Source: Alphaproteobacteria bacterium (GTDB lineage Bacteria; Pseudomonadota; Alphaproteobacteria; UBA828). From it: DNA of 64,000 nucleotides. The position numbers were made by a program, and so were the translations under genes. The stretch covers positions 384,001 to 448,000 of the forward strand of contig CAXXVO010000008.1 of the NCBI GenBank assembly GCA_963422645.2, given 5' to 3'. The notes beneath the pieces were generated by a model. It was not told where the DNA came from. It saw nothing but the letters and a program-made list of their open reading frames with translations, and ran no database searches. Each line of letters begins with the position of its first letter. The stretch's first letter is position 1. This document shows, one piece after another, positions 22,447 to 52,845 of the stretch.

Positions 22447-22465
22447 TGTCAGGCGGCGAGAATGA

Positions 22466-24353
22466 GTAACTGCCCAGGTCGTCTGATTTGTCATTTTGGG
22501 CCAGTGGATTGAGGCGTTTCTCGTTCGGAGTTGGTGGAAAGGGCTTGACGGGAATTTCGGGAAATGACTCAACAACGACATGAGCAATCCCGAGTCGCCG
22601 CGCGGCCCTTCGACGGGAGCAGCGCCCGAAACGCCCGCGCAGAAGATCGCCCGCCTGGAGGAGGAGAACGCCCGGCTTCGGGAGGAAAATGCCTGGCTTC
22701 GGCAGCAGAACGCGCGGCTGGAAGAGCAAGTCGCGCGTCTCGTCGAGCGCATCGAGGAGTTGGAGCGCCGTCTCGGCCTCAACAGCGGCAACAGCGGCAA
22801 GCCGCCTTCGAGCGATGGGCTGAGGAAGCCGAATTCGAAGCGGCGAACCCGAAGCCTGCGCGGCAAATCGGGCCGCAAGCCCGGTGGCCAGCCCGGCCAC
22901 AAGGGCAAGACGCTGCGCCGCGCCGATCACCCGGATCGGGTGAAGGATCACGTCCCGGCTTCCTGCAAGGGATGCGGTTCGCCGCTTTCGGACGCGGCCA
23001 GGGCGGGAACGCCCGTCGCCCGCCAGGTGTTCGATCTGCCCGAGCCGAGCCCCCTGGAGGTGACCGAGCACCGGGCGCATGCCAAGTGCTGCGGGCATTG
23101 CGGGACGGTGACCCGGGCGGCGTTCCCCGACGGGGTGTCGGCGCCGGTGCAGTACGGCCCGCGCATTGCCGGGGTGGCGGTCTACCTTCAGCACGCTCAC
23201 TTCCTGCCGGAGGATCGGCTGTCGCAGGTGATGGCCGAGCTCTTCGGCGCGCCGGTGACGGCTGCGACGTTGGCGACGATGAGCGAGAGGGCGGCCGAGC
23301 GGCTGCGGGACGCGGCCTTGCACATACAGGACCTGGCGGCGGGCACGGCGCGGGTGAAACACATGGACGAGACCGGCTTGCGGATCGGCGGTCAGACGCA
23401 GTGGCTTCATGTGATCTGCACGCCGCTGCTGGCGGCGTACCGGGTCAGCGGCAAGCGCGGCGCCCTGCTCTCGGGTGTCTCCGGCATCGTCGTGCACGAT
23501 CACTGGAAGCCGTACTTCGCGATGGAAGGGGTGGAGCACGGCCTGTGCAACGCCCATCACCTGCGGGAGTTGCAGGCGCTGGTGGACATCGAAGGGGAGG
23601 CTTGGGCCCGGCGGATGCAGCAGCTCCTGCGCCGAGCCAATCGCGCCGCCCGCATCGCGCTGGACAAGGATATCGCCGTTCCGGCGAGGCTTGTGGCGCT
23701 GATCGAGCGCCGATACGACGAGATCATCGCCGATGCGCTGGCCTTTCACGAGAGCCAACCACCGTTCTCGCCTGGCAAGAGGAAGAAGCGCCGGAAGCGA
23801 AGGATCGGTCACAATCCGGCCTTGAGGCTGCGCGACCACAAATGCGCGGTGCTCCGGTTCCTGATCGACCTCGAGGTCGGGTTCACGAACAACGAGGCCG
23901 AGCGCGACCTTCGGATGATGAAGCTGCGCCAGAAGATCTCCGGGGGCTTCCGGTCCGCGCAGGGGGCCGAGAACTTCGCCATCCTGCGCAGCGTCATCAC
24001 CACCGCCAGAAAGCAGGGCTGGAATATCATCGAAGCCCTGACCAGCCCATCGGATCGGCTCATCGCCACCGTCAAGTGCGCGTAAGCTCACCTGGCACGG
24101 GTTCTCCAACAGCGGAGCCATTCTCATAAACGATCATGGTCGACGCCGTGCTGGACCACCCCATAGAATGAAAATCGGTGCCCGTCGCGCGGGCGGACTT
24201 CGGGCCACATCGGGGTAGCTTACCGGTCGCAGTCCGCAAGAGGGGCATCGTGAGCTGTGAAACCCGGCGACCACAGAGGAGCACACGGGCGTCGCGTGGG
24301 TAGCGTTGTGCCGAATCCCAGAGAATTTTCACAGCAAGAACCTGGGCAGTTAC
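22466..24353 (+). mobile_element. IS66-family element, copy 2 (1888 bp)
   Basis: TIRs gtaactgcccaggt / acctgggcagttac; TSD gagaatga at 22458-22465 and 24354-24361. Confidence 0.97.
22580..24085 (+). CDS. IS66-family transposase
   Basis: Same protein as copy 1 except L>P in 'GHNPAL'. Confidence 0.95.
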   Translation: MSNPESPRGPSTGAAPETPAQKIARLEEENARLREENAWLRQQNARLEEQVARLVERIEELERRLGLNSGNSGKPPSSDGLRKPNSKRRTRSLRGKSGRKPGGQPGHKGKTLRRADHPDRVKDHVPASCKGCGSPLSDAARAGTPVARQVFDLPEPSPLEVTEHRAHAKCCGHCGTVTRAAFPDGVSAPVQYGPRIAGVAVYLQHAHFLPEDRLSQVMAELFGAPVTAATLATMSERAAERLRDAALHIQDLAAGTARVKHMDETGLRIGGQTQWLHVICTPLLAAYRVSGKRGALLSGVSGIVVHDHWKPYFAMEGVEHGLCNAHHLRELQALVDIEGEAWARRMQQLLRRANRAARIALDKDIAVPARLVALIERRYDEIIADALAFHESQPPFSPGKRKKRRKRRIGHNPALRLRDHKCAVLRFLIDLEVGFTNNEAERDLRMMKLRQKISGGFRSAQGAENFAILRSVITTARKQGWNIIEALTSPSDRLIATVKCA

Positions 24354-24361
24354 GAGAATGA

Positions 24362-26249
24362 GTAACTGCCCAGGTCGTCTGATTTGTCATTTTGGGCCAG
24401 TGGATTGAGGCGTTTCTCGTTCGGAGTTGGTGGAAAGGGCTTGACGGGAATTTCGGGAAATGACTCAACAACGACATGAGCAATCCCGAGTCGCCGCGCG
24501 GCCCTTCGACGGGAGCAGCGCCCGAAACGCCCGCGCAGAAGATCGCCCGCCTGGAGGAGGAGAACGCCCGGCTTCGGGAGGAAAATGCCTGGCTTCGGCA
24601 GCAGAACGCGCGGCTGGAAGAGCAAGTCGCGCGTCTCGTCGAGCGCATCGAGGAGTTGGAGCGCCGTCTCGGCCTCAACAGCGGCAACAGCGGCAAGCCG
24701 CCTTCGAGCGATGGGCTGAGGAAGCCGAATTCGAAGCGGCGAACCCGAAGCCTGCGCGGCAAATCGGGCCGCAAGCCCGGTGGCCAGCCCGGCCACAAGG
24801 GCAAGACGCTGCGCCGCGCCGATCACCCGGATCGGGTGAAGGATCACGTCCCGGCTTCCTGCAAGGGATGCGGTTCGCCGCTTTCGGACGCGGCCAGGGC
24901 GGGAACGCCCGTCGCCCGCCAGGTGTTCGATCTGCCCGAGCCGAGCCCCCTGGAGGTGACCGAGCACCGGGCGCATGCCAAGTGCTGCGGGCATTGCGGG
25001 ACGGTGACCCGGGCGGCGTTCCCCGACGGGGTGTCGGCGCCGGTGCAGTACGGCCCGCGCATTGCCGGGGTGGCGGTCTACCTTCAGCACGCTCACTTCC
25101 TGCCGGAGGATCGGCTGTCGCAGGTGATGGCCGAGCTCTTCGGCGCGCCGGTGACGGCTGCGACGTTGGCGACGATGAGCGAGAGGGCGGCCGAGCGGCT
25201 GCGGGACGCGGCCTTGCACATACAGGACCTGGCGGCGGGCACGGCGCGGGTGAAACACATGGACGAGACCGGCTTGCGGATCGGCGGTCAGACGCAGTGG
25301 CTTCATGTGATCTGCACGCCGCTGCTGGCGGCGTACCGGGTCAGCGGCAAGCGCGGCGCCCTGCTCTCGGGTGTCTCCGGCATCGTCGTGCACGATCACT
25401 GGAAGCCGTACTTCGCGATGGAAGGGGTGGAGCACGGCCTGTGCAACGCCCATCACCTGCGGGAGTTGCAGGCGCTGGTGGACATCGAAGGGGAGGCTTG
25501 GGCCCGGCGGATGCAGCAGCTCCTGCGCCGAGCCAATCGCGCCGCCCGCATCGCGCTGGACAAGGATATCGCCGTTCCGGCGAGGCTTGTGGCGCTGATC
25601 GAGCGCCGATACGACGAGATCATCGCCGATGCGCTGGCCTTTCACGAGAGCCAACCACCGTTCTCGCCTGGCAAGAGGAAGAAGCGCCGGAAGCGAAGGA
25701 TCGGTCACAATCTGGCCTTGAGGCTGCGCGACCACAAATGCGCGGTGCTCCGGTTCCTGATCGACCTCGAGGTCGGGTTCACGAACAACGAGGCCGAGCG
25801 CGACCTTCGGATGATGAAGCTGCGCCAGAAGATCTCCGGGGGCTTCCGGTCCGCGCAGGGGGCCGAGAACTTCGCCATCCTGCGCAGCGTCATCACCACC
25901 GCCAGAAAGCAGGGCTGGAATATCATCGAAGCCCTGACCAGCCCATCGGATCGGCTCATCGCCACCGTCAAGTGCGCGTAAGCTCACCTGGCACGGGTTC
26001 TCCAACAGCGGAGCCATTCTCATAAACGATCATGGTCGACGCCGTGCTGGACCACCCCATAGAATGAAAATCGGTGCCCGTCGCGCGGGCGGACTTCGGG
26101 CCACATCGGGGTAGCTTACCGGTCGCAGTCCGCAAGAGGGGCATCGTGAGCTGTGAAACCCGGCGACCCCAGAGGAGCACACGGGCGTCGCGTGGGTAGC
26201 GTTGTGCCGAATCCCAGAGAATTTTCACAGCAAGAACCTGGGCAGTTAC
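24362..26249 (+). mobile_element. IS66-family element, copy 3 (1888 bp), tandem with copy 2
   Basis: Same TIRs; gagaatga at 24354-24361 and 26250-26257. Confidence 0.97.
24476..25981 (+). CDS. IS66-family transposase
   Basis: 501 aa, same translation as copy 1. Confidence 0.95.
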   Translation: MSNPESPRGPSTGAAPETPAQKIARLEEENARLREENAWLRQQNARLEEQVARLVERIEELERRLGLNSGNSGKPPSSDGLRKPNSKRRTRSLRGKSGRKPGGQPGHKGKTLRRADHPDRVKDHVPASCKGCGSPLSDAARAGTPVARQVFDLPEPSPLEVTEHRAHAKCCGHCGTVTRAAFPDGVSAPVQYGPRIAGVAVYLQHAHFLPEDRLSQVMAELFGAPVTAATLATMSERAAERLRDAALHIQDLAAGTARVKHMDETGLRIGGQTQWLHVICTPLLAAYRVSGKRGALLSGVSGIVVHDHWKPYFAMEGVEHGLCNAHHLRELQALVDIEGEAWARRMQQLLRRANRAARIALDKDIAVPARLVALIERRYDEIIADALAFHESQPPFSPGKRKKRRKRRIGHNLALRLRDHKCAVLRFLIDLEVGFTNNEAERDLRMMKLRQKISGGFRSAQGAENFAILRSVITTARKQGWNIIEALTSPSDRLIATVKCA

Positions 26250-26483
26250 GAGAATGATGCGATGCGCACTTGCAGCCGCGCCAAAGGCCAGGGCCGCCCT
26301 CAGGTCCGCTTCACTGAGGTAGGGATAGTCGGCGAGGATGTCTTCCTGTGACACGCCTTCGGCCAACAGCTCCAGGATGTCAGCCACCCTGACGCGTGTG
26401 CCACGTATATGCGGCCGCCCGCCGCAAATCGAAGCATCGATCTGTATGCGCTCGCGGACCTCCGGGTCGTCTACCGTGGCCAT
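26250..26483 (-). pseudogene. DUF433 antitoxin (VapB45-like), interrupted in its last codons by the IS66 dimer; native end (AA-stop) is at 22449-22457
   Basis: 'RIQIDASICGGRPHIRGTRVRVADILELLAEG...ILADYPYL...D..AAL.F'. Removing the ISs restores HRIILAA*, 2 bp before the toxin GTG. Confidence 0.9.
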
Positions 26484-26599
26484 GCTGGGCTCCTAGAGCA
26501 GGGTCGTAAGGAACCGGCAGAATACTGGACCAAGACGATCGCGTGTAGTTCGCAGTGTTGCATCCGCAACACAGGTTCCTATCTCTCCGCTCCCCCTCG

Positions 26600-27313
26600 T
26601 CAAGCCCCGGCCCGGTGCGCCTTCGAGAGCTTGTCCGCGAGGCGTGTGGGCTCGGGGAGCCGATAGCGCGTGGCACAGCCAAGGGTCAGCGCCACCGCAG
26701 TTCTGAGCGAGACCCGGTGGCCGGCCGAAACATAGACCGGCTTCACCCGCTCACGCGTTCGCAGGACGGCGCCAAGCCGCTCGCCGGGCCGCACGCCCTT
26801 GTCGGCAAGCAGCCACGCGACATCGCCCTTCGCCGGGCCGGGCTCATCGTGGGAGCCCGTGAGCCTCGACTTTGCGACGCCGATGGCGGGTATGTCCAGC
26901 CAGACCCCGAGGTGGCAGGCGAGCCCGAAGCGGCGGGGGTGGGCATAGCCGTGGCCGTCGCAGAGGATCAGGTCGGGCATCGTGGGGAGTTGGCGGAGAG
27001 CCTCCAGCAAGGCCGGCACCTCGCGGAAGGAGAGCAGCCCCGGCACGTAGGGAAACGTCGTCGGGCGCTCGATCAGCGCTGCGCCCGTCTGCACCGGTCC
27101 GGGATAGTCCAGCATCACCGCTGCGGCCCGAATCACCCGCCCGCCATCGGCAAAGGCGGCATCGACCCCAGCCACCCGCTTGACCGCCCGACGCCCGCCG
27201 GGGCCAAAGCGGTCCGAGCGGACCACCGTGCCGGCGAGCGCCTTCTGCAGTGCGATGGCGTCCTTGGGCGACAGGTTCCACGCGTGGAGCGGCGCGGCAG
27301 CCTTTGCCCTCAC
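26600..27313 (-). CDS. nfi: Endonuclease V
   Basis: 'VAGVD', 'FPYVPGLLSFRE', 'DGHGYAHPRRFGLACHLG', 'IGVAKS', 'YRLPEPTRLAD'. Confidence 0.96.
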   Translation of the reverse strand: MRAKAAAPLHAWNLSPKDAIALQKALAGTVVRSDRFGPGGRRAVKRVAGVDAAFADGGRVIRAAAVMLDYPGPVQTGAALIERPTTFPYVPGLLSFREVPALLEALRQLPTMPDLILCDGHGYAHPRRFGLACHLGVWLDIPAIGVAKSRLTGSHDEPGPAKGDVAWLLADKGVRPGERLGAVLRTRERVKPVYVSAGHRVSLRTAVALTLGCATRYRLPEPTRLADKLSKAHRAGA

Positions 27314-30300
27314 TCCGCGCTGGTCCCGCGGGGTGCGGGTTCGTCCAGAGCCGTGCTCAGCCGTTCGCGCTTGCGCTGCTGACGGGTCGCTACAATCGCC
27401 AGCAGCGGCGGGACGATCAGCAGCGTGAGCACGGCGGAGAGTGCCAGACCACCGATGACCACCGAACCGAGGCCGCGGTAGAGCTCGGAGCCCGCGCCGG
27501 GGAACAACACCAGCGGCAGCATGCCGAACACACTGGTGAGCGTCGACATGAAGATCGGTCGAATCCGATTCCTGGTTGCGGAGACGATCGCGTCCGCGAC
27601 CGCCATCTGCTCCTCCCGCATGTGAAACAGGGTCTGGTGAACGAGCAGGATAGCGTTGTTGACGACAATGCCGACCAGGATGACGAAGCCAAGGAGCGTC
27701 AGCATGTCGAGCGGCTGGAAGGTATAGGTGTTGACCGCCGCAAGCCCCAACAGGCCGCCTGCGGCGGCGAGCGGCACCGAGAGCATGATGACGAAGGGGT
27801 AGACGAAGCTCTCAAAGAGCACGGCCATGATCAGGTAGACGATCGCGATAGCGACCAATAGATTGATCGCCATCGCATCCCACGTGGCCTCGAGGTCGTC
27901 GGCGGTGCCGGACAGCCTGATTTTCACCCCCGGCGGCAGCCCGCGCCCCTCCAACGCCTGCACCACGCCCGTCTCCAGCCTTTCCAGCGCGACCTCGAGC
28001 GGTATGTCCCCGGCAGGGCGGACTTCCAGGGTGATGGTGCGCTCGCGTTCGACGTGGCGAATCTTGGTCGGCCCCGCCGTGACGACGATATCGGCGAGCG
28101 AACTGGCCGGCACGATGGAGCCCGCCCTGGTCACCACCGGCAGGCTCTCGATGCCCTGCGTGCGATCGACGTTGGCGTCCGGCCCCGCCAGAATCAGGTC
28201 GAAGCGCTTGGCGTCGATGGTCACCTCATCCACCTTGAGGCCGTCGTTGTAAGCCTCGATCGTAGCGCCGAACTCACGCGTGGAGACTCCGTTGTCAGCG
28301 AGCTTGACGGGGTCGGGCAACAGGCGCACCTCGGGCGCGCCGAGCTCCAGGCCCGGTTTGGGTCGGAACTGGTTGCCTTGATCGAAGGGTAGCGCCTGGG
28401 CCAGGAGGCCGGTCGCCTGCAGCGCGATACCGAGCACGGTCTCCAGGTCGGGACCCGAGATATCCACATCGATCTTGCGTCCGCCGCCGATCCCGCGGCC
28501 GAACAAGGATGCCTGGCTGACGAAGCCGAAGGTGCCTGGCTCGAAGAACACCGGGGTGCGAATCGGGTCGATCAACTCGCCGGCCCGGTCGGCCTCGACC
28601 GCGACCGCGCCCACGAAGGCCTGATCGCGGAATGTCACGAAGAAGAAGCGCTCCATCTTCGGCGGCTGGCCGGGCTGGGCGTCCGGCCCGGTCTCGGATC
28701 GCCAGAGAGGACGCACCGCGTCCTCGACCGAGCGCGCGATGCCCATGGTGGTCTCGAGATTGTAGCCGGGTGGCGGCAGGAGGACGCCGAACACAAGGTT
28801 GCGGTTGCCGGTCGGCAGGTAGTCGAGCCGGGGCAGCAGCAGCCACGAGACGAAGAGCGCGCCGCCGCAGACCACGACCGCCACCGCGGCCGCACGCAAT
28901 CGGCGGCGCACGACCCATCCGGTGAAGGCCAGCACGACGCGGACGAAGAGCGCGGCCAAGTCGTCGATGATGGGCAAACGAAGCCGGTAGGGCGCTTCCT
29001 CCGCAACCGCATGCGACGCGGAGACATCGCGGTCTCTCCTTCGCCTGCGCCCGAGGATCCGGCTCGCGAGCGACGGGATCACGGTGCTCGCCACGATCAG
29101 CGAAAGCACGACCGAGACCGAGATCGCCACGGCGATGTCGCGGAAGAGCTGGCCGGCCTCCAGCTCCATCACCAGAATTGGCACGAAGACGAGCACCGTG
29201 GTCGCAGCCGAGACGAACACCGCGCCCCAGACCTGCCGCGCGCCGTGATAAGCGGCCTGCAGGCGCCCGTAGCCGTTCTGCCTGAGCCGATAAATGTTCT
29301 CCAGCACCACGATTGCGGCGTCCACCACCATGCCGACGGCGAAGGCGAGGCCCGCGAGCGAGATCACGTTGATCGAACGACCGAGAATCGCCATCGCCAC
29401 GAACGAGCCCACGACCGAGACCGGAATTGCGATGGAGACGATCAGGGTCGCGGAGAAGGAGCGCAGGAAGAGCAGCAGGATCAGCGCGGCCAGCGCGCCG
29501 CCGACGAAAATGTTCTGCTGTACGAGATCGATGGCGGAATTGATGTAGACGGTTTCGTCATAGACCTGATCGAAGACGAGCCCGGCCTGCGGAATCGCCG
29601 CGGCGTTGAGCCCCGCCACGGCCTCCTTGATGCGCGCCATGGTCTCGATCACGTTTGCGCCGGTCTCGCGCACCACGTTGACGGCGAGCGCCGGCTGGCC
29701 GAGCTGGCGAATGCGGGCGACGGGATCCTTGTGACGGTAGGCGACCGTCGCGATATCGCCCATGGTGACCCGGCCGAGCCGGCCCGAGAGCGGGTCGCTC
29801 TCTGAGCGCAGCACGACGCTGGCGATCCGTTCCGGCGTGTTGAGCTCACCGTCGGTGCGCACCACGTAGCGGCGCTTGCCCTCCTCGACATCGCCGGCGG
29901 AGATCGAAGCGTTAGACCGCCGCAGCGCGTCTGCGATCTCGGTCACGGTGAGGCCGTAGCGCGCCATCCGGTCGGGATCGGCGGTGATGCGAAGCTCCCG
30001 TTGGGTGCCGCCGAAAACGTTGACGCGCGCCACACCTTGTACACGCTCCAGGCGCTCCTGAATCACGTCCTCGACGAAGTCGCCGTAGGTGTGGATCGGG
30101 CGCTCGTTGCCCGGTTTTCGCGAGAGGATGAACCAGGCAATCGGCTGGTCTTCCGAGCCGGCAGCGTTGATGATCGGCTCGGCGGCATCGTTTGGCTGGT
30201 CGGGCACCCGGTCCAGCCTGTTGGCAACCAGCACGAGCGCCCGGTCCATGTCGGTGCCGACGGCGAACTCCAGTTCGATCTGACCAACGCCATCGTCGGC

Positions 30301-30549
30301 TGAGCCGATCATGCGGTTCAGCCCTTCGAGACCTTTGAACACCTCCTCCTGCTGAGTGACGATCTCGCGCTCGACCTCGGCGGGGGCTGCGCCAGGCCAG
30401 TAAGTCTCGACGTTGAGGACCGGCTTGCGGACATCGGGCGTGAGCTGGATCGGGATCGTCTGCAGCGCGACGAGGCCGAACATGACCACCATCAGAATCG
30501 CCGCGACGACCGCGATCGGACGGTCGATGGCCAGCCTGATCAGGTTCAT
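27310..30549 (-). CDS. RND (AcrB-family) efflux permease
   Basis: 1079 aa, 'GMVVDAAIVVLENI', 'GIVVNNAILLV', 'RIRPIFMSTLT'. Confidence 0.96.
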   Translation of the reverse strand: MNLIRLAIDRPIAVVAAILMVVMFGLVALQTIPIQLTPDVRKPVLNVETYWPGAAPAEVEREIVTQQEEVFKGLEGLNRMIGSADDGVGQIELEFAVGTDMDRALVLVANRLDRVPDQPNDAAEPIINAAGSEDQPIAWFILSRKPGNERPIHTYGDFVEDVIQERLERVQGVARVNVFGGTQRELRITADPDRMARYGLTVTEIADALRRSNASISAGDVEEGKRRYVVRTDGELNTPERIASVVLRSESDPLSGRLGRVTMGDIATVAYRHKDPVARIRQLGQPALAVNVVRETGANVIETMARIKEAVAGLNAAAIPQAGLVFDQVYDETVYINSAIDLVQQNIFVGGALAALILLLFLRSFSATLIVSIAIPVSVVGSFVAMAILGRSINVISLAGLAFAVGMVVDAAIVVLENIYRLRQNGYGRLQAAYHGARQVWGAVFVSAATTVLVFVPILVMELEAGQLFRDIAVAISVSVVLSLIVASTVIPSLASRILGRRRRRDRDVSASHAVAEEAPYRLRLPIIDDLAALFVRVVLAFTGWVVRRRLRAAAVAVVVCGGALFVSWLLLPRLDYLPTGNRNLVFGVLLPPPGYNLETTMGIARSVEDAVRPLWRSETGPDAQPGQPPKMERFFFVTFRDQAFVGAVAVEADRAGELIDPIRTPVFFEPGTFGFVSQASLFGRGIGGGRKIDVDISGPDLETVLGIALQATGLLAQALPFDQGNQFRPKPGLELGAPEVRLLPDPVKLADNGVSTREFGATIEAYNDGLKVDEVTIDAKRFDLILAGPDANVDRTQGIESLPVVTRAGSIVPASSLADIVVTAGPTKIRHVERERTITLEVRPAGDIPLEVALERLETGVVQALEGRGLPPGVKIRLSGTADDLEATWDAMAINLLVAIAIVYLIMAVLFESFVYPFVIMLSVPLAAAGGLLGLAAVNTYTFQPLDMLTLLGFVILVGIVVNNAILLVHQTLFHMREEQMAVADAIVSATRNRIRPIFMSTLTSVFGMLPLVLFPGAGSELYRGLGSVVIGGLALSAVLTLLIVPPLLAIVATRQQRKRERLSTALDEPAPRGTSAE

Positions 30550-30573
30550 CGCTCGGGCACGCCCCTAGCCCGG

Positions 30574-31707: not shown

Positions 31708-32153
31708 CGAATGTCTCCCCTGCCCGGTCCCCTCTTCCGCGATCGAGCGACCACCCCCGCGCGGTTCAGGGCGATGATCTCCGGCGCCGCCATGCGCCCG
31801 CTCCCGATTGCGTCGTCGGGCTCCATGAAGAGCAGCTCGACCGGCTCATCCGGCGGCGTCACCGGCTCGCCGCCTCCCCGAACCTCGTAGAACATGGGCG
31901 TGTAGAGCCCGTGAATCCAGTGACTGTAAAGGGTTCCCGGCGCATGGAGCAGGCGAATGGGCTCGATCTCGAGGTTCCCCTCCTCCATGAACTCGCGCCT
32001 CAGCGCCTGCTCCGGCGTCTCGCCAGCCTCTACGGCGCCGCCGGGGAGCTTGAGCACATCGCGGCTTCCGACCTGCTCTGCAGCGATCAGCACCCGGCCG
32101 CCGCGCAGCAGCACGCCGTAGACGCGCAAGTTCGCCGGGCCCTGCTGAGTCAC
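31704..32153 (-). CDS. NUDIX hydrolase
   Basis: Nudix box PGGAVEAGETPEQALRREFMEEGN. Confidence 0.9.
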   Translation of the reverse strand: MTQQGPANLRVYGVLLRGGRVLIAAEQVGSRDVLKLPGGAVEAGETPEQALRREFMEEGNLEIEPIRLLHAPGTLYSHWIHGLYTPMFYEVRGGGEPVTPPDEPVELLFMEPDDAIGSGRMAAPEIIALNRAGVVARSRKRGPGRGDIR

Positions 32154-32324
32154 GGTTCATCCCTCATGGTCATGCGCTGCGCGACCCGCCCTTTCTGGCA
32201 TCGTGCCAGCCGTTTCTACACGAAGCGGATGCGCGGGTCACAATGAAGGCTGCACGCCCGCGATGGGGCGAGAGACGCATGGCGCCACGCCGCCGGCCGG
32301 GCTATAAGCCCACGCGGAGGCACA

Positions 32325-33380: not shown

Positions 33381-33523
33381 CGACCCTTCGGCCGGCCCGA
33401 AAGCGTCGCCGCGTCGGCGTACGCGCTGGAACTATCGCGCAAGCACGTCTCCGCGCACACGAAGGGCTTGCCCAGCGGCCGGCTTCGGCTAACATGCGCG
33501 GCGACAACTGACGGGGAAGGGCC

Positions 33524-42060: not shown

Positions 42061-42069
42061 CGTGCCGCG

Positions 42070-44004: not shown

Positions 44005-44047
44005 GTTACCAGCAGTCCAGTCGTGTTGTTACGTCTTTAGGTCTGGA

Positions 44048-45661
44048 CTACAGAACCCACTTGTCGACGCCGACGAGCTTCTGCAGCGGCTCCGGATACA
44101 TTTTGGCCAGGCCGTGCCAGCCCTCCTTCTGCTCCGCCTTGCCCAGACGCCGCGTGATGCGGTTCTGCTCCTTGGCGGCGTCTTCCATGGCCTCTTCCGG
44201 CGACTTGTTGCCGTTGTAGGCCGCGGTCAGATTGACGTCGAGCGCGTTGAGGTACTCGGCCGCGCCGCGCAGCTGAATCTCCGGCACCGCATCCACGATC
44301 GCCTCGGCGTGGGTCGCCAGGAAATCGCCCGGATAGGAGGCGAAGAACTCCGCCGACGGGGCGAAGAAGTGGTTGTCGCGCCACGGGTCGAAATAGCCGC
44401 CCTCGTTCGGGATCGAGCGCATCGACATGGTCGGCCCCGTGATCCACTGCGAGAAGCAATAAGCGGCTTCCTGGATCGGCGAGTAGTTGCTCACCACGAA
44501 GTCCCAGGCGAAGGCATGGATGCACGAGCGAATGAGCTCGCCGTTGTGCATGGTGCCGGGCACCTTGGAGACGGCGGTCTGCGAAGGCTCGCCGTCCTCG
44601 CCCTTGCCGGCGATGACCGACTGCGAGCCCGCCGCGTCGTTGCTGTAGCGCCAGAGCGACGGCCAGCCGAACTCGCAGAAACCACGGCCCTGCGCGTAGT
44701 ACTGCGCGTAGTTCTCGGTGAAGCCGTAGGTGAACTGCTCGGCCGGCATGATGTCCTGCAGCGCGATCAGCTCCTTGAGCGTTTCGATGCCCTGCGGCGT
44801 GTCGGCCAGCGAGTTCATGTCCTCGTCGAAATAGAAGTGCCCCTTCGACTGAACCCGGGTCATCCAGTGGAACTTGTTCCAGAACGGCGAGCGATACTCG
44901 AGAGCGCCGTAGAAGTTGTTGTCCGGGTCGTGCATCGTGGCGCAGAGTTCGTCGTACTCGGTCCAGGTATGGACCATTTCCCTCTGCGACTTCGGCGCCA
45001 GGCCCTTCTCGGCGAGCTTGTCCTTGCGGTAGCTGAGGTGCCACCAGTCGCCGTCGCAATAGAGGCCGTAGGTCTTGCCCTTGTACTTCTGCCCGAAGTC
45101 GGACACCGGGAACTGAAGCTGGTTGGGCCCCGAGTAGACCTCGGGATCGTACTTGTCCATGTAGTCGTCGAGCGGCCGCGCCACACCGGATTCGGCGAGG
45201 TCAGCGAGGCTCAGCGGTGCAGGGATCATGATGTCGTAGCGGCCCGTCTTGGCCACCGCTTCCTGCATCGCCTTCTGGTGAGTCTCGGTCACCGGCACCT
45301 CGATCAGCTCGAGATCGAAGCCGGTGAGCCCCTTCCACTCCTCGACGAAGGGCGAGAGGTTACCGCCGGAGCCCGACGGATACATGATGCTGATGGTCTT
45401 CTTCTCGGCACTGTCGAAGAGCGCCTTCGCGCCGTTGATGGCACGCTCCTCAGGCGTGGCACCCTCGGCCGCCCAGGCCTGGCGCACGCTGAAGGGCGCC
45501 TGGTTCATCAACATCTTGATCGCGCCTGCACCGAGCCCGAGCCCGGCCATGCCCTTGATCAGGTCGCGCCGCGAGACCTTGTAGTTCTTCCGGTCCGCGT
45601 GCATCGACCAGAGCCGATACAGCTCCTTCGTAAACTGCTCTTTCTTGTCGGTATGCGACAT
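44048..45661 (-). CDS. Tat-exported ABC solute-binding protein (family 1)
   Basis: RBS gggagg; twin-arginine 'SRRDLIKG'; SBP-like body; first gene of the ABC operon. Confidence 0.85.
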   Translation of the reverse strand: MSHTDKKEQFTKELYRLWSMHADRKNYKVSRRDLIKGMAGLGLGAGAIKMLMNQAPFSVRQAWAAEGATPEERAINGAKALFDSAEKKTISIMYPSGSGGNLSPFVEEWKGLTGFDLELIEVPVTETHQKAMQEAVAKTGRYDIMIPAPLSLADLAESGVARPLDDYMDKYDPEVYSGPNQLQFPVSDFGQKYKGKTYGLYCDGDWWHLSYRKDKLAEKGLAPKSQREMVHTWTEYDELCATMHDPDNNFYGALEYRSPFWNKFHWMTRVQSKGHFYFDEDMNSLADTPQGIETLKELIALQDIMPAEQFTYGFTENYAQYYAQGRGFCEFGWPSLWRYSNDAAGSQSVIAGKGEDGEPSQTAVSKVPGTMHNGELIRSCIHAFAWDFVVSNYSPIQEAAYCFSQWITGPTMSMRSIPNEGGYFDPWRDNHFFAPSAEFFASYPGDFLATHAEAIVDAVPEIQLRGAAEYLNALDVNLTAAYNGNKSPEEAMEDAAKEQNRITRRLGKAEQKEGWHGLAKMYPEPLQKLVGVDKWVL

Positions 45662-45870
45662 GCGCACCCTCCCTTCGGCACCGGGGGGAGATCTCCGGCC
45701 CGGTTGCCATCGTTTGTCCAAGGTTGAGCACCGCACGGGCGCGGCGCGTATCGACACTCCCTTTGCGCGGCGCACAATAACCATGGCGTGCCCGCCATGC
45801 AAATGGAATTAGAATGCTCCCACGCGCCCGTGCCGGCGCCCAGCATCACCCGTGGAGGCAGCACCAAGCC

Positions 45871-46443
45871 ATGCGCTGGATCAAGGAATACACCATCGAA
45901 AAGCCCGCGCTCTGCGACGAGCTGATCAAGGGTTTCAAGCGGACGCGCCGGCTCGGCCTCACTCGGCCGGGGACCAGCGCCAAGGGCGTCGACAAGGCCT
46001 GGAAGGATTCCGAGGACGCGAGCCTCACCTGCTTCCCCTACGAGGTCTACGCCAAGAGCGTGCGCGCCTATCGCGGTCACGTGATGACCTGCCTCGGCGA
46101 CTACCTGCGGGAGTTTCCGGTGCTGGGCGAGGCCTCCGACAAGCTCGGCTTCCTGGAGCCGCCGCAGATGCAGTACTACCAGCCGGGCGGCGCCTTCCAC
46201 GGCGCCCACTACGAGTCGAGCGGCCTCGACCTCGGCCACCGGGTGCTCGCCTTCCAGACCTTCCTCAACGACATCAAGGAGGGCGGCGGCACCTACTTCA
46301 CCTACCAGGATCACCTGGTCACGCCGGCGAGGGGCAAAACCCTGATCTGGCCGGCGGGCTTCACCCACACGCACAAGGGCGAGGTCGCGCCGCGCGAGGA
46401 GAAGTACATCATCACTGGCTGGATCAGCTTCATGGGCGTTTAG
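45871..46443 (+). CDS. 2OG-Fe(II) oxygenase (prolyl-hydroxylase-like)
   Basis: 'QYYQPGG.F...HYE', 'FLND...GG.T.F', 'WPAGFTH.HKG', 'KYIITGW'. Confidence 0.88.
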   Translation: MRWIKEYTIEKPALCDELIKGFKRTRRLGLTRPGTSAKGVDKAWKDSEDASLTCFPYEVYAKSVRAYRGHVMTCLGDYLREFPVLGEASDKLGFLEPPQMQYYQPGGAFHGAHYESSGLDLGHRVLAFQTFLNDIKEGGGTYFTYQDHLVTPARGKTLIWPAGFTHTHKGEVAPREEKYIITGWISFMGV

Positions 46444-46458
46444 CCCGCATTTCTCACC
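46443..46458 (+). repeat. Solo copy of the MITE terminal repeat
   Basis: gcccgcatttctcacc, same as 56260-56275; overlaps the TAG stop of the oxygenase. Confidence 0.75.
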
Positions 46459-46621
46459 GCGGGCGGTCGCGTCATGCGGCCCTACCTCATCCCTGTCCGC
46501 CCGCGCCGCCTTGGTGCGCCTGCTGCGCCCGGCCGACCTGGGATTCGCGCGCCGGGCCGCTATGATGCGCGGCCGGCCGCGCCGGGAGCGGCCCCAACCG
46601 CCAGTCAGGAGAGACGCCGCC

Positions 46622-47011
46622 ATGCCCAACGAGATGTACGAGAAAGGTTTGCAAATCCGGCGCGAGGTGCTGGGCTCGGAGTATGTGGACCGCGCCATCG
46701 GCAGCGCCGACGACTTCAACCAGGAATTCCAAGAGATTCTGACCGAGTACTGCTGGGGCGCGGTGTGGGGCCGGCCGGGGCTGAGCCGCAAGCAGCGCAG
46801 CCTCAACAACATTTGCATGCTCTCCGCACTCGGCCGCAATCATGAGCTGGAGCTGCATCTCAAGGGGGCGCTGACCAACGGAGTCACCGTCGACGAGATC
46901 AAGGAGACGCTGATCCAGGTCGCCGTCTATTGCGGCGCGCCGGCTGCGGTCGAAGGCTTCCGCATCGCGCGCCGCGTGGTCGACGAGCACCGCAAGACGG
47001 AGGCCGGCTGA
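46622..47011 (+). CDS. Carboxymuconolactone decarboxylase family protein
   Basis: 'GLQIRREVLG.EYVD', 'EYCWG.VW.RPGL', 'VYCGAPA'. Confidence 0.92.
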   Translation: MPNEMYEKGLQIRREVLGSEYVDRAIGSADDFNQEFQEILTEYCWGAVWGRPGLSRKQRSLNNICMLSALGRNHELELHLKGALTNGVTVDEIKETLIQVAVYCGAPAAVEGFRIARRVVDEHRKTEAG

Positions 47012-47871
47012 TGCCGACTTTGGGTTTCATCGGCCTCGGCAACATGGGCGGGCCCATGGCGTACAATCTGGCGGTCGCCGGCCACGAGGTGGTGTGCTTC
47101 GATGCGGCAGGTACCGAGGCGCTGGCACCGCCCGGCGCGCCCACGGCCGGCTCTGCAGCGGAGGTGGCGCAGAGGGCTCGCATCGTCTTCCTCTGCCTGC
47201 CCGACGGGGCGGTTGTGCTGCACGTGGCGCGCGAGATCGCCCAATGCCCCGACCGCGCGGCCGGGATCGTGGTGGACAGCACCACTGCCGGCATGCCGGA
47301 CGCCCGCGCGGCCCACGACGTGCTGGCCGAGGCCGGCATCCGCTACGCCGATGCGCCGGTGAGCGGCGGCACGAAGGGCTCGAAGGCCGGCACCCTCGCC
47401 ATGATGGTCGCGGCACCCGACGACCTCTTCGCCGAAATTGAGCCCTATATTCGCCCGATGGCGGCAAACGCCCGCCATGTCGGCACCGAGCCCGGCCAGG
47501 GCATGGCGATGAAGCTGCTCAACAACTTCCTCTCGGCGACCGCGATGGCGGCGACCAGCGAGGCGGTGGCCTTCGGCGTCTCCCAGGGTCTCGACATGAT
47601 GACGATCCTGGAGACGGTCAATCTCTCCACCGGGCGCAACACCGCGACCGAGGACAAGTTCCCCAACCGCATCGCGACCGGCGCGTACGACGCAGGCTTT
47701 GCCACCAAGCTGATGGCCAAGGACCTCCGGCTCTACGAGGCAAGCGTCGCGGCCGCCGCTGCACCGCGCCGGCTCGCCGGGCAGCTTCGGGAAATCTGGG
47801 ACGGTCTGGAAGCCGTCCGCCCTGACTCCGACTTCACCGAGATCTACCAGCACCTACGCGACGGTGGGTAA
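47011..47871 (+). CDS. 3-hydroxyisobutyrate dehydrogenase-family NAD(P) oxidoreductase
   Basis: GFIGLGNMGGPMA, DAPVSGG, MKLLNN, KDL. Confidence 0.92.
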   Translation: MPTLGFIGLGNMGGPMAYNLAVAGHEVVCFDAAGTEALAPPGAPTAGSAAEVAQRARIVFLCLPDGAVVLHVAREIAQCPDRAAGIVVDSTTAGMPDARAAHDVLAEAGIRYADAPVSGGTKGSKAGTLAMMVAAPDDLFAEIEPYIRPMAANARHVGTEPGQGMAMKLLNNFLSATAMAATSEAVAFGVSQGLDMMTILETVNLSTGRNTATEDKFPNRIATGAYDAGFATKLMAKDLRLYEASVAAAAAPRRLAGQLREIWDGLEAVRPDSDFTEIYQHLRDGG

Positions 47872-47894
47872 GAGCGCGCGCGCCTATGGCGCCT

Positions 47895-48683
47895 CTATCG
47901 CGCAGTCGTGCCGCCGTCGATGGGGAGCAGCGTGCCGGTGACGAAGCCGGCGGCGTCGGAGGCCAAAAACATCACCGCGTGGGCGATATCGAGCGGCTGG
48001 CCCACCTTGCCGAGCGGGATGTGGTCCTTGAGCTTCTCGCGGATCTCCTCCGACGAGAGGTCGAGGTGCGCCCAGCCCAGGTCGGTCATGGGCGTGTCGA
48101 TATCGCCGGGGCAGACCGCGTTGACGCGAATGCCGTCGCGTGCGTGATCCATCGCCATGCACTTGGTCAACATGACGATGGCGCCCTTGGTCGCGCTGTA
48201 GGCGGGCAGCCGTTCGTAAGCGATCAGCCCGCATTCCGACGACATATTGATAATTGCGCCGCCATCGCCCTGCGCCTTCATCTGGCGCACGGCGGCCCGC
48301 GCCATATAGAAGCTGCCACTGACATTGATGCCGATCAGGTGGTCCCAGTCGTCGTCCGAGGTCTCGTCCACCGGCCCGTGCAGACAGATGCCGGCATTGT
48401 TGAAGAGCACGTCGAGCCGGCCGAAGCGGTCCACCGTCTCGTCCACCAGCCGGTTGCAGTAGGCGGAGTTCGCCACACCGCCGAGACTGAGGGCAGCGCT
48501 GCCGCCGCTGCTCACGATGGCGTCCAGCACCGCACCGCCGCGCGCCGCATCGCGCCCGTTGATCATGACGTTGGCGCCGTGGGCGGCGAAGGCCTCGGCA
48601 GTGCCTTCGCCGATGCCGGAGCTGGCACCGGTGACCAGCACCGTCTTCCCGGCGAATGCGTCGTTGGCGAAGACTGAGGTCAT
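47895..48683 (-). CDS. Short-chain dehydrogenase/reductase
   Basis: TGASSGIG, NNAG, YSATK, VCPG.IDT. Confidence 0.93.
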   Translation of the reverse strand: MTSVFANDAFAGKTVLVTGASSGIGEGTAEAFAAHGANVMINGRDAARGGAVLDAIVSSGGSAALSLGGVANSAYCNRLVDETVDRFGRLDVLFNNAGICLHGPVDETSDDDWDHLIGINVSGSFYMARAAVRQMKAQGDGGAIINMSSECGLIAYERLPAYSATKGAIVMLTKCMAMDHARDGIRVNAVCPGDIDTPMTDLGWAHLDLSSEEIREKLKDHIPLGKVGQPLDIAHAVMFLASDAAGFVTGTLLPIDGGTTAR

Positions 48684-48724
48684 GGGAGCCTCCCTTTGGG
48701 CCGGTTGCGCCTTGCAACCTTGGT

Positions 48725-50170
48725 TTAGCTTGCGAGGACCGGCGGCCGCCGGTCCTTCCAGGGCTTCGCCGCCTCCAGCTGGCCAGCGAGGCGGAAGAGC
48801 GTGCTCTCGTCGCGTTCGCGGCCCACGAGCTGCACGCCGACCGGTAATCCGTCCGCCGTCATGTGCAGCGGCAGCGACATGCCGGGCAGGCCGCAAGCGT
48901 TGAAGGGCGCCGTAAACACGGCATCCGGACCCATCAGCTCGGTGTTGTAGCGGTCGATGTCGCCCATGGTCATCGGGTAATGGCCGTGGCGGCGGGCGGG
49001 ATGGCCGATCACCGGCATCAGGTGAACGTCGCAGTCCGCGAGGCTCGCGACCAGATCGCGGCTGATCTGGCGCAGCTCGTTCACGTCGCGGTAGTGCTGC
49101 GGGCCGTCGATGGTCTTGCCCCTCTGGATGATTGCCCAGATCAGCGGCGCGACATCGTCTTCGGTCGCGGGACGGCCGATGAGCGCCTCGGAATCCTCGA
49201 AGCCCGACGCGGTCTGGGCGGCGGTCATCTGCGTATACGCGGACCAGAAGGGTTCCCAGTCCAGGGCGAGCTCCCGTTCTTCCACTTGATGACCGAGGCT
49301 TTCGCAGAGCGCCGCGGCATCGCGCACGGCCTGCACCACCTCGGCGTGGATGGGGAGCCCGGCCGGCGACGCCGTGGTGACGCCGATACGGAGCGTGCCG
49401 GGGTCGCGCCCCACCTCGTCCAGGTAGGGCGTTGCCGGCATATCGGTGTAGTAGACGTCGCCGGTCACCCGCCCGCCGACCGCGTCCAGATAGGCGGCGG
49501 TCTCGCGCACCGTGTGGGTCACGGTGAGGAAGGAGGCCCCGCCGTACCAGTAGTCGGGGTAGGGATTGAGCGTCACCCGGCCGCGCGAGGGCTTGAGCCC
49601 GACCAGCCCGCAGTGGGAGGCCGGCACCCGCGTCGAGCCGGCGCCGTCGCTCGCATCGACGAAGGGCACCATGCGGGACGCCAGCGCCGCCGCCGCGCCG
49701 CCGCTGGAGCCGCCCGGCGTCCGCTCCAGGTTCCAGGGGTTGTTGGCGCGGCCGAAAAGCGCGGGCTCGGTCGCGAGGCACCAGCCGAACTCCGGCGCGT
49801 TGCTGCGGCCGAGCAGCACGAACCCCGCCTCCTTGATCCGCCGCGTGTAGGTCATGTCGGCGGGACAGACGAAGTCCTTGAAATAGGAGCAGCTGTTGAC
49901 CAGCGGGATGCCCTCCCAGAGCGTGCCGAGATCCTTGAGCAGGAAGGGCACCCCCTTGAAGGGGCCATCGGGCAGCGCCGGGTCTGCGGCGGCCTTCCGC
50001 CCATAGTCGAAGAGCGGGATGGAGACCGCGTTCAGCACAGGGTTCAGCGCCTTGATGCGGCGGATCGCCGCCTCGGCGAGCTCGCTGGGCGTGACCTCGC
50101 CCGCCTTCACCAGCCGGGCGATCTCGAGCGAATCCCTCTGGTCGAACAGGGCTCCGATATCGGCGCTCAT
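48725..50170 (-). CDS. Amidase signature family protein
   Basis: 'GVPFLLKD', 'GGSSGG', 'SDGAGSTRVPASHCG', 'GLPVGVQL'. Confidence 0.95.
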   Translation of the reverse strand: MSADIGALFDQRDSLEIARLVKAGEVTPSELAEAAIRRIKALNPVLNAVSIPLFDYGRKAAADPALPDGPFKGVPFLLKDLGTLWEGIPLVNSCSYFKDFVCPADMTYTRRIKEAGFVLLGRSNAPEFGWCLATEPALFGRANNPWNLERTPGGSSGGAAAALASRMVPFVDASDGAGSTRVPASHCGLVGLKPSRGRVTLNPYPDYWYGGASFLTVTHTVRETAAYLDAVGGRVTGDVYYTDMPATPYLDEVGRDPGTLRIGVTTASPAGLPIHAEVVQAVRDAAALCESLGHQVEERELALDWEPFWSAYTQMTAAQTASGFEDSEALIGRPATEDDVAPLIWAIIQRGKTIDGPQHYRDVNELRQISRDLVASLADCDVHLMPVIGHPARRHGHYPMTMGDIDRYNTELMGPDAVFTAPFNACGLPGMSLPLHMTADGLPVGVQLVGRERDESTLFRLAGQLEAAKPWKDRRPPVLAS

Positions 50171-50246
50171 GGGGCCTCCCCGGCTGACTGTACTCCCCGC
50201 CGCCCGGGCGTGGCGCGGCCGGCGCGTTGCACATATCCCGTGGCTC

Positions 50247-50291
50247 CGGCCTCTGCAAACGAAAAGGAGCGGGCCCTTAGGACCGCCCCGA
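50247..50291 (+). repeat. Imperfect direct-repeat copy of the groEL terminator region (left boundary of the fic islet)
   Basis: cggcctctgcaaacgaaaaggagcgggcccttaggaccgccccga versus 53201-53246 (2 mismatches, 1 indel). Confidence 0.85.
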
Positions 50292-50487
50292 TTCGAACGT
50301 CCAGCTCCCGACGCTGCCCGGTCATATACTGGACTGTTGTTCTTGGAGCAGCTCGAACAGGAGTCGAGTCATGGGAGACAAGAAGTCGTGCATATCGCCG
50401 TTCCATTCGGTTGTATCCGCGTGGCGAAGCGCTTGCACGTACCGGTCCCTGTTCTCGGGCCTGCGAAGAAGCTCGGGGAGAATGATC

Positions 50488-52375
50488 GTAACTGCCCAGG
50501 TCGTCTGATTTGTCATTTTGGGCCAGTGGATTGAGGCGTTTCTCGTTCGGAGTTGGTGGAAAGGGCTTGACGGGAATTTCGGGAAATGACTCAACAACGA
50601 CATGAGCAATCCCGAGTCGCCGCGCGGCCCTTCGACGGGAGCAGCGCCCGAAACGCCCGCGCAGAAGATCGCCCGCCTGGAGGAGGAGAACGCCCGGCTT
50701 CGGGAGGAAAATGCCTGGCTTCGGCAGCAGAACGCGCGGCTGGAAGAGCAAGTCGCGCGTCTCGTCGAGCGCATCGAGGAGTTGGAGCGCCGTCTCGGCC
50801 TCAACAGCGGCAACAGCGTCAAGCCGCCTTCGAGCGATGGGCTGAGGAAGCCGAATTCGAAGCGGCGAACCCGAAGCCTGCGCGGCAAATCGGGCCGCAA
50901 GCCCGGTGGCCAGCCCGGCCACAAGGGCAAGACGCTGCGCCGCGCCGATCACCCGGATCGGGTGAAGGATCACGTCCCGGCTTCCTGCAAGGGATGCGGT
51001 TCGCCGCTTTCGGACGCGGCCAGGGCGGGAACGCCCGTCGCCCGCCAGGTGTTCGATCTGCCCGAGCCGAGCCCCCTGGAGGTGACCGAGCACCGGGCGC
51101 ATGCCAAGTGCTGCGGGCATTGCGGGACGGTGACCCGGGCGGCGTTCCCCGACGGGGTGTCGGCGCCGGTGCAGTACGGCCCGCGCATTGCCGGGGTGGC
51201 GGTCTACCTTCAGCACGCTCACTTCCTGCCGGAGGATCGGCTGTCGCAGGTGATGGCCGAGCTCTTCGGCGCGCCGGTGACGGCTGCGACGTTGGCGACG
51301 ATGAGCGAGAGGGCGGCCGAGCGGCTGCGGGACGCGGCCTTGCACATACAGGACCTGGCGGCGGGCACGGCGCGGGTGAAACACATGGACGAGACCGGCT
51401 TGCGGATCGGCGGTCAGACGCAGTGGCTTCATGTGATCTGCACGCCGCTGCTGGCGGCGTACCGGGTCAGCGGCAAGCGCGGCGCCCTGCTCTCGGGTGT
51501 CTCCGGCATCGTCGTGCACGATCACTGGAAGCCGTACTTCGCGATGGAAGGGGTGGAGCACGGCCTGTGCAACGCCCATCACCTGCGGGAGTTGCAGGCG
51601 CTGGTGGACATCGAAGGGGAGGCTTGGGCCCGGCGGATGCAGCAGCTCCTGCGCCGAGCCAATCGCGCCGCCCGCATCGCGCTGGACAAGGATATCGCCG
51701 TTCCGGCGAGGCTTGTGGCGCTGATCGAGCGCCGATACGACGAGATCATCGCCGATGCGCTGGCCTTTCACGAGAGCCAACCACCGTTCTCGCCTGGCAA
51801 GAGGAAGAAGCGCCGGAAGCGAAGGATCGGTCACAATCTGGCCTTGAGGCTGCGCGACCACAAATGCGCGGTGCTCCGGTTCCTGATCGACCTCGAGGTC
51901 GGGTTCACGAACAACGAGGCCGAGCGCGACCTTCGGATGATGAAGCTGCGCCAGAAGATCTCCGGGGGCTTCCGGTCCGCGCAGGGGGCCGAGAACTTCG
52001 CCATCCTGCGCAGCGTCATCACCACCGCCAGAAAGCAGGGCTGGAATATCATCGAAGCCCTGACCAGCCCATCGGATCGGCTCATCGCCACCGTCAAGTG
52101 CGCGTAAGCTCACCTGGCACGGGTTCTCCAACAGCGGAGCCATTCTCATAAACGATCATGGTCGACGCCGTGCTGGACCACCCCATAGAATGAAAATCGG
52201 TGCCCGTCGCGCGGGCGGACTTCGGGCCACATCGGGGTAGCTTACCGGTCGCAGTCCGCAAGAGGGGCATCGTGAGCTGTGAAACCCGGCGACCACAGAG
52301 GAGCACACGGGCGTCGCGTGGGTAGCGTTGTGCCGAATCCCAGAGAATTTTCACAGCAAGAACCTGGGCAGTTAC
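50488..52375 (+). mobile_element. IS66-family element, copy 4 (1888 bp)
   Basis: Same TIRs; TSD gaatgatc at 50480-50487 and 52376-52383. Confidence 0.97.
50602..52107 (+). CDS. IS66-family transposase
   Basis: Same protein except G>V in 'NSVKPP'. Confidence 0.95.
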   Translation: MSNPESPRGPSTGAAPETPAQKIARLEEENARLREENAWLRQQNARLEEQVARLVERIEELERRLGLNSGNSVKPPSSDGLRKPNSKRRTRSLRGKSGRKPGGQPGHKGKTLRRADHPDRVKDHVPASCKGCGSPLSDAARAGTPVARQVFDLPEPSPLEVTEHRAHAKCCGHCGTVTRAAFPDGVSAPVQYGPRIAGVAVYLQHAHFLPEDRLSQVMAELFGAPVTAATLATMSERAAERLRDAALHIQDLAAGTARVKHMDETGLRIGGQTQWLHVICTPLLAAYRVSGKRGALLSGVSGIVVHDHWKPYFAMEGVEHGLCNAHHLRELQALVDIEGEAWARRMQQLLRRANRAARIALDKDIAVPARLVALIERRYDEIIADALAFHESQPPFSPGKRKKRRKRRIGHNLALRLRDHKCAVLRFLIDLEVGFTNNEAERDLRMMKLRQKISGGFRSAQGAENFAILRSVITTARKQGWNIIEALTSPSDRLIATVKCA

Positions 52376-52845
52376 GAATGATCGTCCCGGGGAGCCACCC
52401 ACCCAGCTTGACACACAGCACGAAATAGCAGGCCGCACGCGCCGTTCTGCCGTTGCCGTTGATAAACGGATGAATCCAGTTCAGCCGCCAGAGCACGTAA
52501 GCGGCCAAGGAGACCTCATCCCAATCGTTCCAGTACCGATTCACTTCGTTGACGAAATCGTCCATCAACGCATTGACGCGATAGTGATCGGGCGGATCGT
52601 GGTCGCCGACAGTCACGGCACAAGGTCGGTATTCCCCTGCATAGGGGTGCAAGCATGCGATCGCGTGGTAGTTGATCGCCTTGACGACGGTCTGCGACAA
52701 GAAAGGCTTTCCGACTGCCACTGCAGTCTCCACGACGGATTGGAGAAAATCGTAGTGCCGACCGCCGTTTGCAACTTCGAGAGCGCGGTATGCAGGGTGA
52801 TCTTCGTTTCCCCTGACTAACTCGGAAAGTATCATGGCTCTACGA

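Follow-up and report, generated by a model that had tools for sequence, protein, structure and literature searches.

The single-ORF (open reading frame) group of IS66-family insertion sequences includes ISBst12 and ISDge4. As given in PMC12898284, ISDge4 has ends GTGACTACTCAGCA and GTAACTGCTCAGCA, a 449-aa transposase and an 8-bp repeat, CCTCGATG. The same text, from 2026, presents its movement as the first active transposition observed for the single-ORF group and describes IS66 mechanisms as still insufficiently characterised (PMC12898284). Here we analyse an IS66-family element of 1888 bp that is found as three full copies and one truncated inverted copy, by repeat finding and direct reading, in a 64,000-nt stretch of an alphaproteobacterial genome of lineage UBA828 (contig CAXXVO010000008.1, positions 384,001 to 448,000; C9:384001-448000 in the genome coordinates used below), referred to as the window. 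Like ISBst12 and ISDge4 it has one ORF with an IS66 DDE domain, GTAAC ends, 8-bp duplications and a length below 2 kb; unlike them, it encodes a transposase of 501 aa that has a DUF6444 region at its N-terminus, and it is present in ~100 copies in one genome. With the canonical three-ORF elements IS66 and IS679 it shares the transposase family and the 8-bp duplication but, in contrast to these, it is without tnpA and tnpB. To our knowledge, IS66 elements are not regarded as target-specific. The insertions catalogued below show a non-random choice of target, and a degenerate, two-fold symmetric preference for an A/T core, not a defined sequence, very probably accounts for where the element has inserted.

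One ORF, GTAA ends and 8-bp duplications place the element among the single-ORF (ISBst12-type) members of the IS66 family. The transposase ORF occupies element positions 115-1620, which leaves no room in 1888 bp for accessory tnpA and tnpB genes. The translated sequence matches Pfam DDE_Tnp_IS66 (1.2e-38, profile positions 3-283 of 284), DUF6444, and zf-IS66, the zinc-finger region upstream of the catalytic domain (7.9e-07; 29.8 bits, cut-off 27.3), and scores 290.9 bits against the NCBIfam equivalog transpos_IS66 (cut-off 180). In ISfinder, terminal inverted repeats beginning with 5'-GTAA are a criterion of the IS66 family. The termini of the present element are inverted repeats that conform to this, with GTAACTGCCCAGG at the start and its reverse complement, CCTGGGCAGTTAC, at the end. 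Thus all IS66 traits that were tested are present: DDE domain, zinc finger, GTAA ends and 8-bp duplications. Two other long ORFs inside the element (521 aa on the plus strand and 597 aa on the minus strand) have no Pfam family match.

Target preference of the element

The genome comprises 23 contigs with 5.9 Mb and 67% G+C. A blastn search with a reference copy detected 65 full-length copies as single high-scoring segment pairs, 48 of them with perfect 8-bp duplications. When the genome was scanned with the terminal 40-mers, 108 left ends and 98 right ends were found. A perfect 8-bp repeat pairs 64 of the left ends locally with a right end, in some cases across nested other elements, and 8 further left ends pair through a matching duplication with a right end at a different locus. 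These cross-locus pairs indicate that copies have recombined and caused rearrangements, or that the assembly was joined through repeats; examples are CTCCCCTG, found on contigs C5 and C9, and GAAATTTC, on C21 and C7. With tandems merged, there are 70 distinct rebuilt sites, and these form the basis of the logo and the pair counts. The IS load of the genome is massive, with a total of 416 IS66-type ends when related elements with ends GTAACTACCCAGG are counted. Many copies are broken by other elements at recurrent positions, e.g., 1202/1206, 1752/1756 and 1619/1625.

The logo of the 70 sites was drawn in element orientation and is read against a genome background of 33% A/T. Position 1 of the duplication is T in only 3 sites (G in 27, C in 24) and position 8 is A in 8 (C in 30). 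The six positions between them are 63-87% A/T, with maxima at positions 4 (81%) and 5 (87%). Just outside the duplication A/T is again frequent (71% at -1 and 68% at +1), and beyond these positions it ranges from 23 to 61%, with a mean of 41%. At least five A/T are present in 53/70 duplications, compared with 7.3% of random genomic 8-mers. The information amounts to ~3.9 bits across the 8 bp and ~1.5 bits in the flanks, and the consensus is roughly GA-W4-TC at ~4-5 bits, with a and t as the bases immediately outside. Each column mirrors its partner, such that the logo reads the same on both strands; 17/70 sites have GA at duplication positions 1-2 and 17/70 have TC at positions 7-8, where the genome frequencies are 6.9% and 6.8%, respectively. 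Because the logo is palindromic, the orientation of the element is not set by the target.

Thus target choice is non-random, and the signal goes beyond regional AT-richness and keeps to the register of the duplication. A register-bound signal of this kind is hard to explain by selection for tolerated locations alone. Two observations qualify the A/T-core reading. All sites are insertions that survive in one genome, so selection contributes to what is seen. In addition, the simple logo understates the preference, because long words recur among the sites more often than under a position-independent model: six pairs share a word at k=9 against a null mean of 1.5, a number reached in 0/400 shuffles. 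Site pairs in opposite orientation show an equal excess. The commonest 6-mers of the sites are purine-rich, with GAGAAT, GGAAAT and GAAGAA each present in 7/70 sites where ~1.3 are expected.

The target preference also accounts for recurrent insertions into the element itself. The consensus-like sequences GATTTGTC, at element positions 20-27, and GAATTTTC, at 1858-1865, have been struck repeatedly, and the resulting fragments, 1-27 / 20-1888 and 1-1865 / 1858-1888, are found at several loci. In the window, examples of these self-targets are:

22485-22492, self-target within tandem copy 1
24323-24330, self-target within tandem copy 1

The following course of events best explains these data. The element would have expanded to ~100 copies in a 5.9-Mb genome of 67% G+C, its DDE transposase making cuts staggered by 8 bp. 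Targets would be picked by an A/T core (positions 2-7) bounded by G/C at both ends of the duplication (positions 1 and 8), with A/T as the adjoining outer bases, and favoured targets would often be purine-rich words such as GAGAAT, GGAAAT and GAAGAA on either strand. In a GC-rich genome such a bias may direct insertions to AT-richer intergenic and accessory DNA, including some toxin-antitoxin (TA) and defence genes, and to the ends of the element itself. The tandem pair found in the window would be a separate phenomenon, tied to the ends of a resident copy and not to the target sequence. The symmetry of the logo may reflect a symmetric transpososome that senses the shape or bendability of the target.

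Copies and interrupted genes in the window

The copies of the element, their duplications and the genes at the two occupied sites are as follows.

22466..24353, plus strand, IS66-family element, tandem copy 1, 1888 bp, identical to the blastn reference copy
24362..26249, plus strand, IS66-family element, tandem copy 2, head to tail with copy 1
22458..22465, GAGAATGA, left 8-bp target duplication of the tandem
24354..24361, GAGAATGA, 8-bp spacer that separates the two tandem copies (right end of copy 1, left end of copy 2)
26250..26257, GAGAATGA, right target duplication of the tandem
50488..52375, plus strand, IS66-family element, third full copy
50480..50487, GAATGATC, left target duplication of the third copy
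52376..52383, GAATGATC, right target duplication of the third copy
10266..11890, minus strand, truncated inverted copy, element positions 1-1625, outer flank cagtaagg in element orientation
22580..24085, plus strand, transposase ORF, 501 aa, also at 24476-25981 and 50602-52107
26258..26483, minus strand, DUF433 gene minus its last few codons (Pfam DUF433, 3.9e-25)
22120..22446, minus strand, DUF5615 / PIN-like gene, intact (Pfam DUF5615, 1.2e-19; PIN_10, 7e-6)
52384..52835, minus strand, Fic-domain gene, N-terminal 150 codons (Pfam Fic, 9.8e-17)
50322..50487, minus strand, C-terminal remainder of the Fic-domain gene, reading frame continuous across the rebuilt site

At the first site the insertion breaks the DUF433 gene five codons ahead of its stop codon, and the rest of this gene, stop codon included, is found at 22449-22465. 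The rebuilt DUF433 gene has 80 aa, and the DUF5615/PIN_10 gene (108 aa) starts within a few bases downstream of it. The two genes are now parted by two copies of the element, with 3.8 kb between them. The interrupted DUF433 frame runs on into the element as a 171-aa ORF at 25968-26483. Seven congeners keep the locus uninterrupted and have the 8-mer once each (exact in five, GCGAATGA in one and GAGGATGA in one), which shows that the empty site rebuilt for the first insertion is real. The second site cuts the Fic-domain gene after ~150 of its 205 codons; the C-terminal piece on its own matches no Pfam family. The fic gene was not found among the 12 congeners searched, and it is thus accessory DNA. 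Elsewhere in the window, at 3734-5273, there is a direct repeat pair of 300 nt with 71% identity, 1240 nt apart.

Is the word shared by the two sites a recognition sequence?

With the element removed, the two sites read ..ggcggcGAGAATGAtgcg.. and ..cggggaGAATGATCgtcc.., and GAGAATGAT is present in both. The 8-bp duplication window is offset by 2 nt between them. At both sites the element is on the plus strand and the host gene on the minus strand, and the host frame reads Ile-Ile-Leu at the shared word. These features had been described in a first-pass annotation of the window made from the sequence alone, along with the flanks and the surviving flank of the truncated copy (cagtaagg), and direct reading agrees with all of them. 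From the shared word that annotation went on to suggest that the element has real target recognition. The register-locked, non-random choice of sites bears out this suggestion in part; the use of GAGAATGAT as the sequence recognised is not borne out, as it is found in 2/70 sites.

A transposase that is specific for GAGAATGAT (or GAGAATGA) would fit with a 9-mer common to two sites 26 kb apart in the same orientation, one of them occupied by two copies, and with the place of GAGAAT/ATTCTC among the three commonest 6-mers of the sites (7/70 compared with 1.3 expected). The latter finding also counts against a purely degenerate preference, as does the rarity of a match of at least 9 bases for any one pair of sites. 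However, such pairs are expected given the number of sites. A 9-mer or longer word is shared in the same orientation by 6/2415 pairs (0.25%), the window pair among them, and in either orientation by 12/2415. The word GAGAATGAT itself is absent from the other 68 of the 70 rebuilt sites, and the genome has 15 copies of it.

GAGAAT starts either at position 1 of the duplication or two bases upstream, on either strand relative to the element, and both registers place GA at duplication positions 1-2. The shared word therefore appears in two registers 2 nt apart because both duplications start with GA. With a recognition sequence, register and orientation would both be constant, and thus GAGAAT-type words are truly favoured without being such a sequence. 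Ranked against the symmetrised logo, GAATGATC is 26th and GAGAATGA only 57th of the 70 sites, and ~5% of genome positions score as high as GAGAATGA. Related elements (86-94% identity) in two congeners have 8-bp duplications in 8/9 cases, none containing GAGAAT. In a sequence-specific element most insertions would lie at one word in fixed register and orientation; here 2 of the 70 sites contain GAGAATGAT. Taken together, these results make recognition of GAGAATGAT or GAGAATGA as a specific target hardly credible. GAGAATGA and GAATGATC would be ordinary examples of the A/T-core preference, and it is largely by coincidence, added to this bias, that the two sites also have a 9-mer, an orientation and an Ile-Ile-Leu frame in common. 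The genome-wide collection of copies and oriented logo that had been proposed as a check thus returned an A/T-core preference with enrichment of GAGAAT, and no orientation signal.

Toxin-antitoxin loci

The first-pass annotation placed both insertions inside TA loci and offered TA genes as hot spots or selected knock-outs. The first locus has the layout of a type II system: DUF433 and DUF5615 are adjacent small genes on the same strand, one of them with a nuclease-type fold, and they are contiguous in congeners. The DUF433 / DUF5615-PIN pairing is one that we take to be a predicted TA system. The label does not carry over to fic. The ORFs upstream of fic match no Pfam family and include no recognisable antitoxin partner, and the Fic protein scores 20.4 bits against Doc of NCBIfam, below the cut-off of 38.65; 'mobile mystery protein B' is also below its cut-off. 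With no partner match upstream and a Doc score below the cut-off, the TA-locus label for fic is unjustified.

To survey the other sites, flanking ORF pieces were scanned against Pfam. For the first 13 loci all 150 pieces (at least 40 aa, at most 240 nt from the junction) were scanned, and for the other loci 366/783 (at least 45 aa, at most 45 nt). TA families were found at 3/70 sites, with 516/933 pieces scanned, so that small or more distant TA genes were possibly missed. The three are the two window sites and one with a HicB-like gene 124 bp away. The remaining sites adjoin or split ordinary genes, e.g., AMP-binding, class-III aminotransferase, DAO, peptidase M19 and molybdopterin oxidoreductase. 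Three more sites adjoin defence-type genes, which have a CAP12/Pycsar TIR effector domain, Druantia DruA and a type III restriction ResIII helicase. These insertions are:

C9:503637, C18:177333 and C19:30774 (loci L048, L071 and L074), defence-adjoining insertions

Could TA loci nevertheless be hot spots, or could disabling insertions in them be selectively retained? Two insertions in or at TA-type genes within one window, and a third 124 bp from a HicB-like gene, would fit this, and parting a PIN-like gene from its upstream DUF433 partner is plausibly tolerated. Within 100 bp of TA genes there are two insertions, where 0.23 are expected if sites are uniform (P ~0.02), and this excess speaks against target preference as the whole account. 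When the target bias is included the expected number is 0.58 (P ~0.12), and it should be noted that the six TA families were picked post hoc, after the insertions were seen. The genome has 42 matches to these families (PIN 20, Phd 8, Fic 5, ParE 4, HicB 3, DUF433 2), and an element end lies within 125 bp of 3 of them. None of the 20 PIN matches has an element end within that distance, and neither ParE (0/4) nor Phd (0/8) is struck. With TA families at only 3/70 sites, mostly housekeeping or metabolic genes at the other flanks, and a Fic gene that is without a recognisable partner and below the Doc cut-off, TA loci as hot spots or as retained knock-outs are improbable. Thus the enrichment that had been proposed for testing did not hold up once target bias was allowed for. 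Any TA enrichment is weak at most, and of the kind expected for AT-richer accessory DNA.

Tandem copies and abutting ends

The double occupancy of the first site had also been noted, but it does not show specificity: since GAGAATGA is a poor match to the consensus, the target sequence does not explain the second insertion. The spacing of the ends points elsewhere. Ends of the same element face each other within 100 bp at four places in the genome, and every spacer is exactly 8 bp. Three of these end pairs are head to tail (two of them sharing one spacer) and one joins right end to right end, which gives three independent junctions. Head-to-tail places are:

C9, window tandem, spacer GAGAATGA
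C3:224183-226133, tandem with spacer CTTAAATG, which also flanks it
C8:517728-522540, dimer with spacer CTTAAATG, flanked on both sides by AAAAATCC duplications

The CTTAAATG dimer either moved whole, or another copy acquired its junction by copying. Spacers between an end of this element and the ends of other IS66-type elements are 3, 7, 10, 18, 31, 43, 43 and 78 bp. Because heterologous pairs vary in this way, the exact 8-bp spacing is tied to cognate ends. A fixed spacer equal in length to the duplication, as in IS30, is thus seen in 4/4 pairs, three of them independent.

IS30 is the closest parallel in behaviour. According to PMC9333248 it has a degenerate symmetric hot-spot preference, inserts beside its own ends and forms tandem dimers with a spacer of duplication length; in the present element the own-end mechanism is inferred. 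The IS30 transposase belongs to an unrelated family, and its duplication is 2 bp, compared with 8 bp here. Junctions of IS30 are left-right only (PMC9333248), whereas one of the three independent static junctions found here is right-right. The IS66 literature searched, which was incomplete for subscription journals and without supplements, contained no target consensus and no dimer junctions for this family.

The sequences of the copies bear on how the tandem arose. Tandem copy 2 differs from copy 1 at two positions, both polymorphic among the copies of the genome, and both tandem alleles are also found in other copies. Copies paired at random differ to a similar extent (mean 1.70 substitutions; at least 2 in 51% of 2145 pairs). 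These differences favour an independent second copy. It should be noted that all four allele combinations exist among 66 aligned copies, and that these four-gamete violations suggest gene conversion, which, if frequent, weakens the haplotype argument. The fic copy has the minority allele T at alignment column 332 (10/66 copies), which is in neither tandem copy. Whether daughter sites resemble the flank of their donor was considered, and there is no sign of a parent-offspring link between the two window sites. In the MAFFT alignment 14/66 copies are without 9 bp of the transposase ORF (columns 315-323), an in-frame three-codon deletion that has itself spread.

A second, independent insertion may have been directed to the 8 bp beside a resident cognate end, with re-use of the duplication, as in the targeting of inverted repeats by IS30 and IS911. 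This is a serious possibility that we stop short of calling probable. It would give the same 8-bp spacing in all four pairs and would also account for the inverted, right-right junction, and the tandem copies differ as a random pair does, by alleles common to other copies. The sites concerned are poor matches to the consensus (ranks 57 and 49 of 70), and IS30 is described as integrating beside its own inverted repeats (PMC9333248). On the other side, only three independent junctions are at hand, the gene conversion suggested above blunts the haplotype argument, the IS30 precedent is restricted to left-right joints where one here is right-right, and no such behaviour of IS66 elements was found in the literature searched.

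The tandem could alternatively be a by-product of transposition, in which ends of sister copies were joined into a dimer, or an excised circle with an 8-bp flank recombined with a resident copy, as in a copy-out-paste-in pathway. Spacer and flanking duplication are the same 8-mer, and the CTTAAATG-spacer dimer that sits between AAAAATCC duplications is accounted for by this route, as a circle recombining or a dimer moving whole. IS30 makes tandem dimers by end joining (PMC9333248), and the ISBst12-type ISDge4 is termed copy-and-paste (PMC12898284). However, the right-right junction is left unexplained, and copies that are identical at birth are predicted where two differences are seen. In addition, abutted ends of IS30 are unstable (PMC9333248), yet abutted ends persist here. 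A by-product of this type is possible, and we hold it tentatively.

It is unlikely that the tandem is an assembly artefact or that it arose without transposase, through slippage at the 8-bp repeats or unequal exchange between them. The copy is flanked by direct repeats, repeats of ~100 copies are hard to assemble, and the genome has a contamination figure of 8.48%. But repeats of 8 bp offer very little length for unequal exchange, two differences separate the copies, and the same architecture is found at other loci. The junction at 24332-24382 is present in mismatch-free 51-nt contigs in 3/4 public runs; these are too short for a bridging rule of 31+31 nt and lend weak support to the tandem being real.

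Thus the tandem points to an end-linked process, either insertion beside a resident cognate end or the formation of dimers. ISBst12-type elements quite possibly have an end-directed mode of this kind, in which they insert into the 8 bp abutting a cognate end, or form dimers or circles that carry an 8-bp flank.

Implications for the IS66 family

An IS66 element that is strictly sequence-specific, or that homes to TA loci, would be unusual, and the catalogue shows neither. Overall the element is an ordinary member of its family with a mildly interesting lead on mechanism. What the analysis adds to the literature searched on this group are a target logo from 70 insertions of a single-ORF IS66 element, and the finding of cognate ends that abut at exactly the length of the duplication, which is a testable hint on how the family moves. 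If the end-directed mode is true, the static 8-bp junctions would be footprints of a copy-out-paste-in type of pathway in a poorly characterised family.

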